Origin: Candidatus Woesebacteria bacterium GW2011_GWB1_39_12
Lineage (GTDB): Bacteria > Patescibacteriota > Microgenomatia > UBA8517
Direction of reading: 5' to 3'
Assembly (NCBI GenBank): GCA_000993405.1
Contig: LBWB01000007.1
Span: forward strand, 8,383 to 72,382
Length of the DNA: 64,000 nucleotides
In this document: one piece after another, positions 16,013 through 16,398 of the stretch
Layout of the letters: every line of letters starts with the position of its first letter
Position numbering within the stretch: the first letter of the stretch is position 1
Position numbers and translations under genes: made by a program
The notes under the pieces: model-generated
Told to the model about the DNA's origin: nothing
Seen by the model: the letters and a program-made list of their open reading frames with translations, nothing else
The model's database searches: none

Positions 16013-16398
16013 TGAGTCCCGTAAGCTAACGCGTTAAGCGAGCCGCCTGGGGAGTACGAGCGCAAGCTTAAAACTCAAAGGAATTGACGGGGACCCGCAC
16101 AACCAGTGGAGCATCGCAACCCCTGCCGTATGTTAAATTATTCATACGGGACTGGCCAGCTTAGCTGGCAGGAAGTGGGGACGATGTTAAGTCCGCATGG
16201 CCCTTATGTCTAGGGCAACACACATGCTACAATGGAGCCGACAATGGGTTGCCAAGTGGTAACACGGAGCTAATCCCATCAAACGGCTTCTCAGTTGGGA
16301 TTGAGGGCTGCAACTCGCCCTCATGAACGCGGAATTGGTAGTAATCGGAAATCAGCTAAGTTCCGGTGAATACGTTCTCGGGTCTTGTACACACCGCC

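Follow-up and report, generated by a model that had tools for sequence, protein, structure and literature searches.

The 16S rRNA gene in a groundwater MAG of Candidatus Woesebacteria (Microgenomates, CPR) passes from ...GGAGCAT to CGCAACCC between positions 16114 and 16115 of the window (the whole 64-kb stretch of DNA analysed here), and the question raised by this locus is whether the 167 nt missing between these two strings have been lost by the organism or only by its assembled record. The lost stretch holds what we take to be universally conserved A- and P-site elements of the 30S head. If real, such a deletion would be remarkable, since this segment helps to form the small-subunit tRNA-binding sites. 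Comparison with other assemblies of the same locus indicates that the gap is very probably a local assembly or curation error in the MAG.

Across the junction the window reads ...ggaattgacggggacccgcacaaccagtggagcat followed by cgcaacccctgcc..., with the break between 16114 and 16115, where ...CCGCACAACCAGTGGAGCAT abuts CGCAACCCCTGCC... without Ns. In the alignment to Rfam RF00177, model positions 941–1221 (281 positions) are covered by just 109 nt. Comparison with an intact copy places the part that has no counterpart in the window at model positions 941–1096, a span of 167 nt in this lineage that corresponds approximately to E. coli 947–1099. What is gone comprises a portion of the h30 5′ strand, h31, the 5′ strand of h32, h33, the 5′ strands of h34 and h35, h36 and h37. 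The sequence-only reading had described a 16S without E. coli positions 950–1100 (h33–h37). The RF00177 comparison that it proposed as a check confirms that the segment is absent from the gene as recorded, both by the sparse coverage and by a score of 979.8 bits against 1225 bits for the restored or intact gene (cmscan). The extent, however, has to be redrawn, as the loss sets in already within the h30 5′ strand and includes h31 and h32.

The gene matches RF00177 far above the gathering score of 50, over model positions 1–1533, with the 3′ part of the alignment forced. The 3′ end reported by Rfam, 16470, is wrong; the last ∼130 model positions are forced into the start of an intervening sequence, and pattern searching places the real terminus at AAGTCGTAACAAGGTATCC (17352–17370) and GGATCACCTCCTT (17389–17401), in a 3′ exon spanning 17279–17402. 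The 16S gene in the window therefore carries a pair of AT-rich insertions and an 880-nt intervening sequence, and lacks 167 nt at 16114/16115 (Table 1). Both AT-rich 16S insertions are context and lie outside the 167-nt defect.

Table 1. Positions of the 16S rRNA gene, its parts and the other rRNA features in the window.
Feature	Position	Strand	Basis or remark
16S rRNA gene	14853..17402	+	RF00177 match, 979.8 bits, start 14853; 3′ end from pattern search
AT-rich hairpin insertion 1, 16S 5′ domain	15030..15194 (Rfam alignment, 165 nt); 15011-15205 (family profile)	+	Model position ∼190
AT-rich hairpin insertion 2, 16S h26 region	15815..15998	+	Relatives' alignments and nhmmer family profile
Deletion junction	16114..16115	+	167 nt (GTGGTTTAATTCGAGACG...TGCATGGCTATCGTCAGCTCGTG...GGGGTAACGAG) present in other assemblies of the locus
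Retained 3′ half of head domain: h35 3′ strand, h38-h40, 3′ strands of h34, h32 and h30	16115..16224	+	Pairing in the intact locus L003
Intervening sequence, 880 nt, decoding region	16399..17278	+	Relatives join 16398 directly to 17278
LAGLIDADG homing-endonuclease ORF, 148 aa	16798..17244	+	Pfam PF00961; inside the intervening sequence
AT-rich hairpin insertion just 5′ of 23S	23577-23762	+	Family profile
23S rRNA gene	23764-27786		4023 nt against a 2925-position model; several insertions
AT-rich hairpin insertions in 23S	24060-24243, 24524-24686, 25300-25510, 25741-25907	+	Family profile
Group I intron in 23S	27196-27449		80.4 bits
5S rRNA gene	27850-27966		

The missing bases do not lie elsewhere in the window. 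The sequence-only reading had stated that three conserved blocks of the segment occur nowhere in it, and a pattern search of the 64 kb allowing up to 3 mismatches likewise returned zero matches. When the lineage's own 167-nt segment was sought in the window, blastn-short gave chance matches of 10–15 nt alone and nhmmer gave no match. Furthermore, a scan of 16000–23800 at a permissive Rfam threshold detected neither a second SSU fragment nor a group I intron. A split rRNA gene of the kind known from some organellar rRNAs, whose absent part would come from another locus and join in trans, would have nothing in its favour beyond the absence of the piece from its normal place; with no copy in the 64-kb window and the piece in cis in all other intact assemblies, this arrangement is extremely unlikely. 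Nor did the ends of the deletion show any convincing microhomology or repeat that could account for a collapse of the assembly graph.

Other assemblies of the locus were retrieved from NCBI, ENA and JGI contigs through exact matches to the LAGLIDADG protein and to the upstream LapA-domain protein. The 167 nt are present at the junction in eight loci from seven other contigs (L002, L003/L060, L004, L055, L056, L058 and L059). In four of these intact loci, L055, L056, L058 and L002, the flanks are 99.8–100% identical to the window and the shared 167 nt are GTGGTTTAATTCGAGACGAACCGAAGAACCTTACCTAGACTTGACATGCTACCGTTTTACTCTGATAGAAATATCGGGGGATCCTTCGAAAGTTGGATGGTAGCACAGGTGTTGCATGGCTATCGTCAGCTCGTGTCGTGGGATGTTCCCTTCAGTGGGGTAACGAG. 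The 38-kb contig of L055 (JGI 3300025015) is 100% identical over 5986 nt on the left and 99.8% over 2194 nt on the right. Identity is 100% on both sides in the other three, over 5986 nt (left) and 2192 nt (right) in the 47-kb contig of L056 (ENA SRR1658462), 5436 and 1944 nt in L058 (JGI 3300025117), and 91 and 7130 nt in L002 (ENA SRR1658343). The remaining intact loci, L003/L060, L004 and L059 (NCBI MEXU01000056.1), also contain the 167 nt, with flank identities of at least 99%.

In the intact loci the upstream LapA and NUDIX genes and the downstream LAGLIDADG and TraG-like genes are the same as in the window. Because the flanking protein genes agree on both sides, the intact version represents the same locus and no paralogue. 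The gap consequently reads as an error, with no biology behind it, because other assemblies of the same bacterium hold the bases at the same locus. These assemblies show that the 167 nt exist in the organism, in cis, at this locus and in the same genotype. Using re-assemblies of the groundwater read sets SRR1658343 and SRR1658462 as a proxy, we infer that the junction would lack read support. The sequence-only reading had looked to raw reads for signs of a collapsed assembly, and these re-assemblies supply them in substance.

The sequence retained on the 3′ side of the junction is consistent with an intact head domain. In the intact locus L003, h30–h37 are aligned with high posterior probability and almost all of their pairs are standard (cmscan), and the bases corresponding to 16115–16224 pair with the 167-nt segment through essentially all standard pairs. 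The head-domain segment h30–h37 (model positions 941–1096) is absent from the window, whereas in other assemblies of the locus it is present and well paired. The 3′ strands of h30, h32, h34 and h35 that the window retains match the intact copies with 100% identity, and the flanks and remaining rRNA of the window show zero decay relative to those copies. These assemblies indicate that the organism has an ordinary 16S head domain, with h30–h37 present at the locus.

These observations bear directly on the two biological explanations that the sequence-only reading had offered. One was a pseudogene. A real 167-nt deletion in a recently pseudogenised rrs, tolerated by means of an intact copy elsewhere or confined to a minor subpopulation, would agree with the clean gap, free of Ns, in the window sequence. 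However, neither sequence decay nor an intact copy at another locus was found; the intact version lies at the same locus between the same neighbour genes, with flanks 100% identical, which leaves no paralogue, and neither the flanks nor the orphaned 3′ strands have decayed. Moreover, the junction is common to none of the retrieved contigs, and two other MAG records carry different defects that start from the identical base. A real deletion is accordingly very unlikely.

The second was an extreme structural reduction, that is, a ribosome functional without h31–h37. CPR bacteria have unusual rRNAs and reduced ribosomes, and the present 16S does bear insertions and an intervening sequence. A reduction would nevertheless take both strands of a helix, and here the 3′ strands of h30, h32, h34 and h35 remain unchanged, complementary to the 5′ strands that are missing and paired with them in the intact copy. 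In truly reduced SSU rRNAs, both helix strands are lost and the loss is common to relatives. The resemblance to such molecules, mitochondrial SSU rRNAs for example, is superficial and lies in the absence of a sizeable part of the 3′ major domain; unlike them, the window keeps the partner strands and every measured relative is intact. From general ribosome knowledge, the universally conserved A- and P-site elements within the lost stretch speak against its dispensability as well. With the region kept in every measurable relative, including those 99–100% identical, a reduced but working ribosome is scarcely credible.

The comparison with relatives was made on one genome per species, mostly Woesebacteria with other Microgenomates, scanned for the 21-nt left flank of the junction. 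In all 44 species-representative loci (44/44) this flank is followed by GTGGTT(T/C)AATTCGA. The downstream string GCGCAACCC was reached in 35 of the 44, and the deletion occurs in none of these (0/35). The distance to GCGCAACCC is 154–172 nt in 34 of the 35 loci, usually 166–167 nt; in the exception, L015, it is 1019 nt, which again is no deletion. The region is kept in every relative open to measurement, so the comparison with close relatives that had been suggested alongside the original observation gives a uniform result. The window's junction was likewise seen in none of the 82 loci retrieved (0/82), and the gap is unreproduced in assemblies of the same genotype, with eight intact loci among them. 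A scan of metagenome_contigs for the junction gave 0 matches, but a scan of the same collection also missed a 29-nt string of the intact version which two JGI contigs, Ga0209210_1000568 and Ga0208958_1006341 (L055 and L058), do contain, so that neither null speaks for absence.

Differing defects at the same site were found in other assemblies of this population, in the records LBWA01000004.1 and LCEY01000016.1, and N-runs nearby in MEXU01000056.1. Closest to the window among public records is LBWA01000004.1 (L001, GCA_000993365.1), with 100% identity across 5210 nt upstream and 7130 nt downstream; it holds 108 of the 167 nt, the first 59 being gone from the same base as the gap in the window. 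The contig end of LCEY01000016.1 (L061) falls exactly at ...GGAGCAT. This record is also without 75 nt of 16S (window 15336–15410), with no Ns in their place, a loss that takes the conserved ACxCCTACGGGxGGCAGCA block. MEXU01000056.1 (L059) contains N-runs (n = 4) corresponding to window positions 15212–15326, 17132–17252, 13087–13125 and 11659–11817; one of these runs consists of 115 Ns standing for exactly 115 nt of 16S, and some are shorter than the sequence that they replace. In the window, LBWA01000004.1 and LCEY01000016.1 the break comes right after GGAGCAT in each case. Two MAGs, Candidatus Woesebacteria bacterium GW2011_GWA1_39_12 and GW2011_GWB1_39_12, have the LAGLIDADG protein in their annotation.

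Three records that break at one and the same base, each in its own way, point to a pipeline failure rather than one mutation. The contigs of L002, L004, L005, L006, L007 and L010 either stop in the conserved 16S stretch or switch there to another relative, and the assembly graph was evidently tangled at this stretch, because contigs of several assemblies end or change relative within it. The mis-assembly that the sequence-only reading had listed among its options is therefore supported, by the 167 nt in other assemblies and by records of the population that break differently at the same base. The three broken records could also be taken for true heterogeneity at a recombination hotspot after GGAGCAT, with the short allele real in part of the population, either as a single-copy 16S without h31–h37 or as a 16S pieced together with the 167 nt from another locus; we regard this as highly improbable. 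A join of concatenated contigs was considered as the origin of the junction and is out: a tRNA gene spans the LCEY contig start that would be needed, and the LBWA contig reads through the site.

If the gap is an error, as we consider very probable, its most likely route is that a stretch for which the pipeline had no read support was either cut out or turned to Ns that were dropped afterwards. The stretch in question is a conserved rRNA segment common to several co-occurring relatives. The step at which the bases were lost may have been the assembler, a curation script, submission or later handling. A loss in data handling after assembly, for instance by removal of an N-run or masked stretch with the assembler not at fault, would fit the 108 of 167 nt in LBWA01000004.1, a record otherwise identical around the junction, and the N-runs that another MAG of the population keeps at unsupported sequence. 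On the other hand, the window differs from LBWA01000004.1 elsewhere and probably represents an assembly of its own rather than an edited version of that record, so that handling after assembly seems an unlikely, though not negligible, source. It is in any case a variant of the artefact reading and leaves the biological verdict unchanged.

Several further differences between these records were observed. The window agrees with LBWA01000004.1 around the 16S gene and at 51.5–64 kb, and is net 298 nt longer somewhere within 23244–51541. LCEY01000001.1 has an indel near window 32775–32931. The Rho protein (35172–36485) and a 391-aa beta-helix protein (29446–30621) were found on no indexed contig of at least 50 kb.

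Local errors in MAGs are suspected to be especially common in IDBA-UD assemblies, and Ns should replace unsupported consensus (Chen, Anantharaman, Shaiber, Eren & Banfield, 2020, Genome Res., PMC7111523). The gap described here resembles the errors of that study in being a short missing stretch of consensus in a contig that is otherwise correct, in falling within a region common to co-occurring relatives, and in being unreproduced elsewhere; another MAG of the population has N-runs. It differs from them in being a clean deletion without Ns that has the same start base in three assemblies.

The other irregularities of the 16S gene are of a different kind. Seven related AT-rich hairpin insertions of ∼160–210 nt, all on the + strand, lie inside or beside the rRNA genes of the window. 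In each, a short GC clamp is followed first by an A-rich and then by a T-rich arm, and a second GC clamp such as TCTCGCGCAGAGTGCGAG closes the unit. The family profile, built from these insertions, gives E = 1e-33 to 1e-44 over the seven (7.5e-37 for the match at 15815–15998; nhmmer) and detects no further copies in the 64-kb window. Insertion 1 folds with −55.2 kcal/mol (z −7.4), and at insertion 2 the alignments of relatives break near 15805 and restart near 16001–16020. The seven have the look of a single element family spread into several rRNA helices, not of independent expansion segments.

The 880-nt intervening sequence lies at approximately E. coli C1403/C1404, its boundaries being ambiguous by 1 nt. 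Its ORF belongs to the LAGLIDADG_1 family (PF00961), and the Rfam models of group I and group II introns gave no match to the intervening sequence at E ≤ 1. Among related loci, L057, a close relative, has two LAGLIDADG ORFs downstream of the junction region, and L006 has a LAGLIDADG_2 ORF farther upstream. CPR 16S genes with insertions and with intervening sequences that bear homing endonucleases were reportedly described by Brown and colleagues in Nature in 2015, and the two AT-rich insertions and the 880-nt LAGLIDADG intervening sequence of this groundwater Woesebacteria MAG are like them. Those features, however, add sequence to an otherwise complete 16S, whereas the gap is a loss of core sequence. 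We know of no such loss as a property of CPR 16S genes.

The rest of the rRNA operon is also unusual in layout. The 16S and 23S genes are 6.3 kb apart (17403–23763), with protein-coding genes on the opposite strand in the spacer, among the spacer genes a homologue of TraG/VirD4-like coupling proteins of 750 aa (20245–22497). The genes for tRNA-Ile(GAT), at 22908, and tRNA-Ala(TGC), at 23284, lie just ahead of the 23S gene.

At least three MAG sequences of this Woesebacteria population have been deposited with a defective rrs, namely the source of the window, LBWA01000004.1 and LCEY01000016.1. Use of these sequences would mislead phylogeny, the evaluation of primers and probes, or claims of rRNA reduction in the CPR. 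A corrected sequence can be obtained from other assemblies, for example the L056 contig. The 167-nt gap is no real feature and its value is that of a data-quality flag; the insertions and the intervening sequence of the rRNA operon are genuine oddities, unrelated to the gap.
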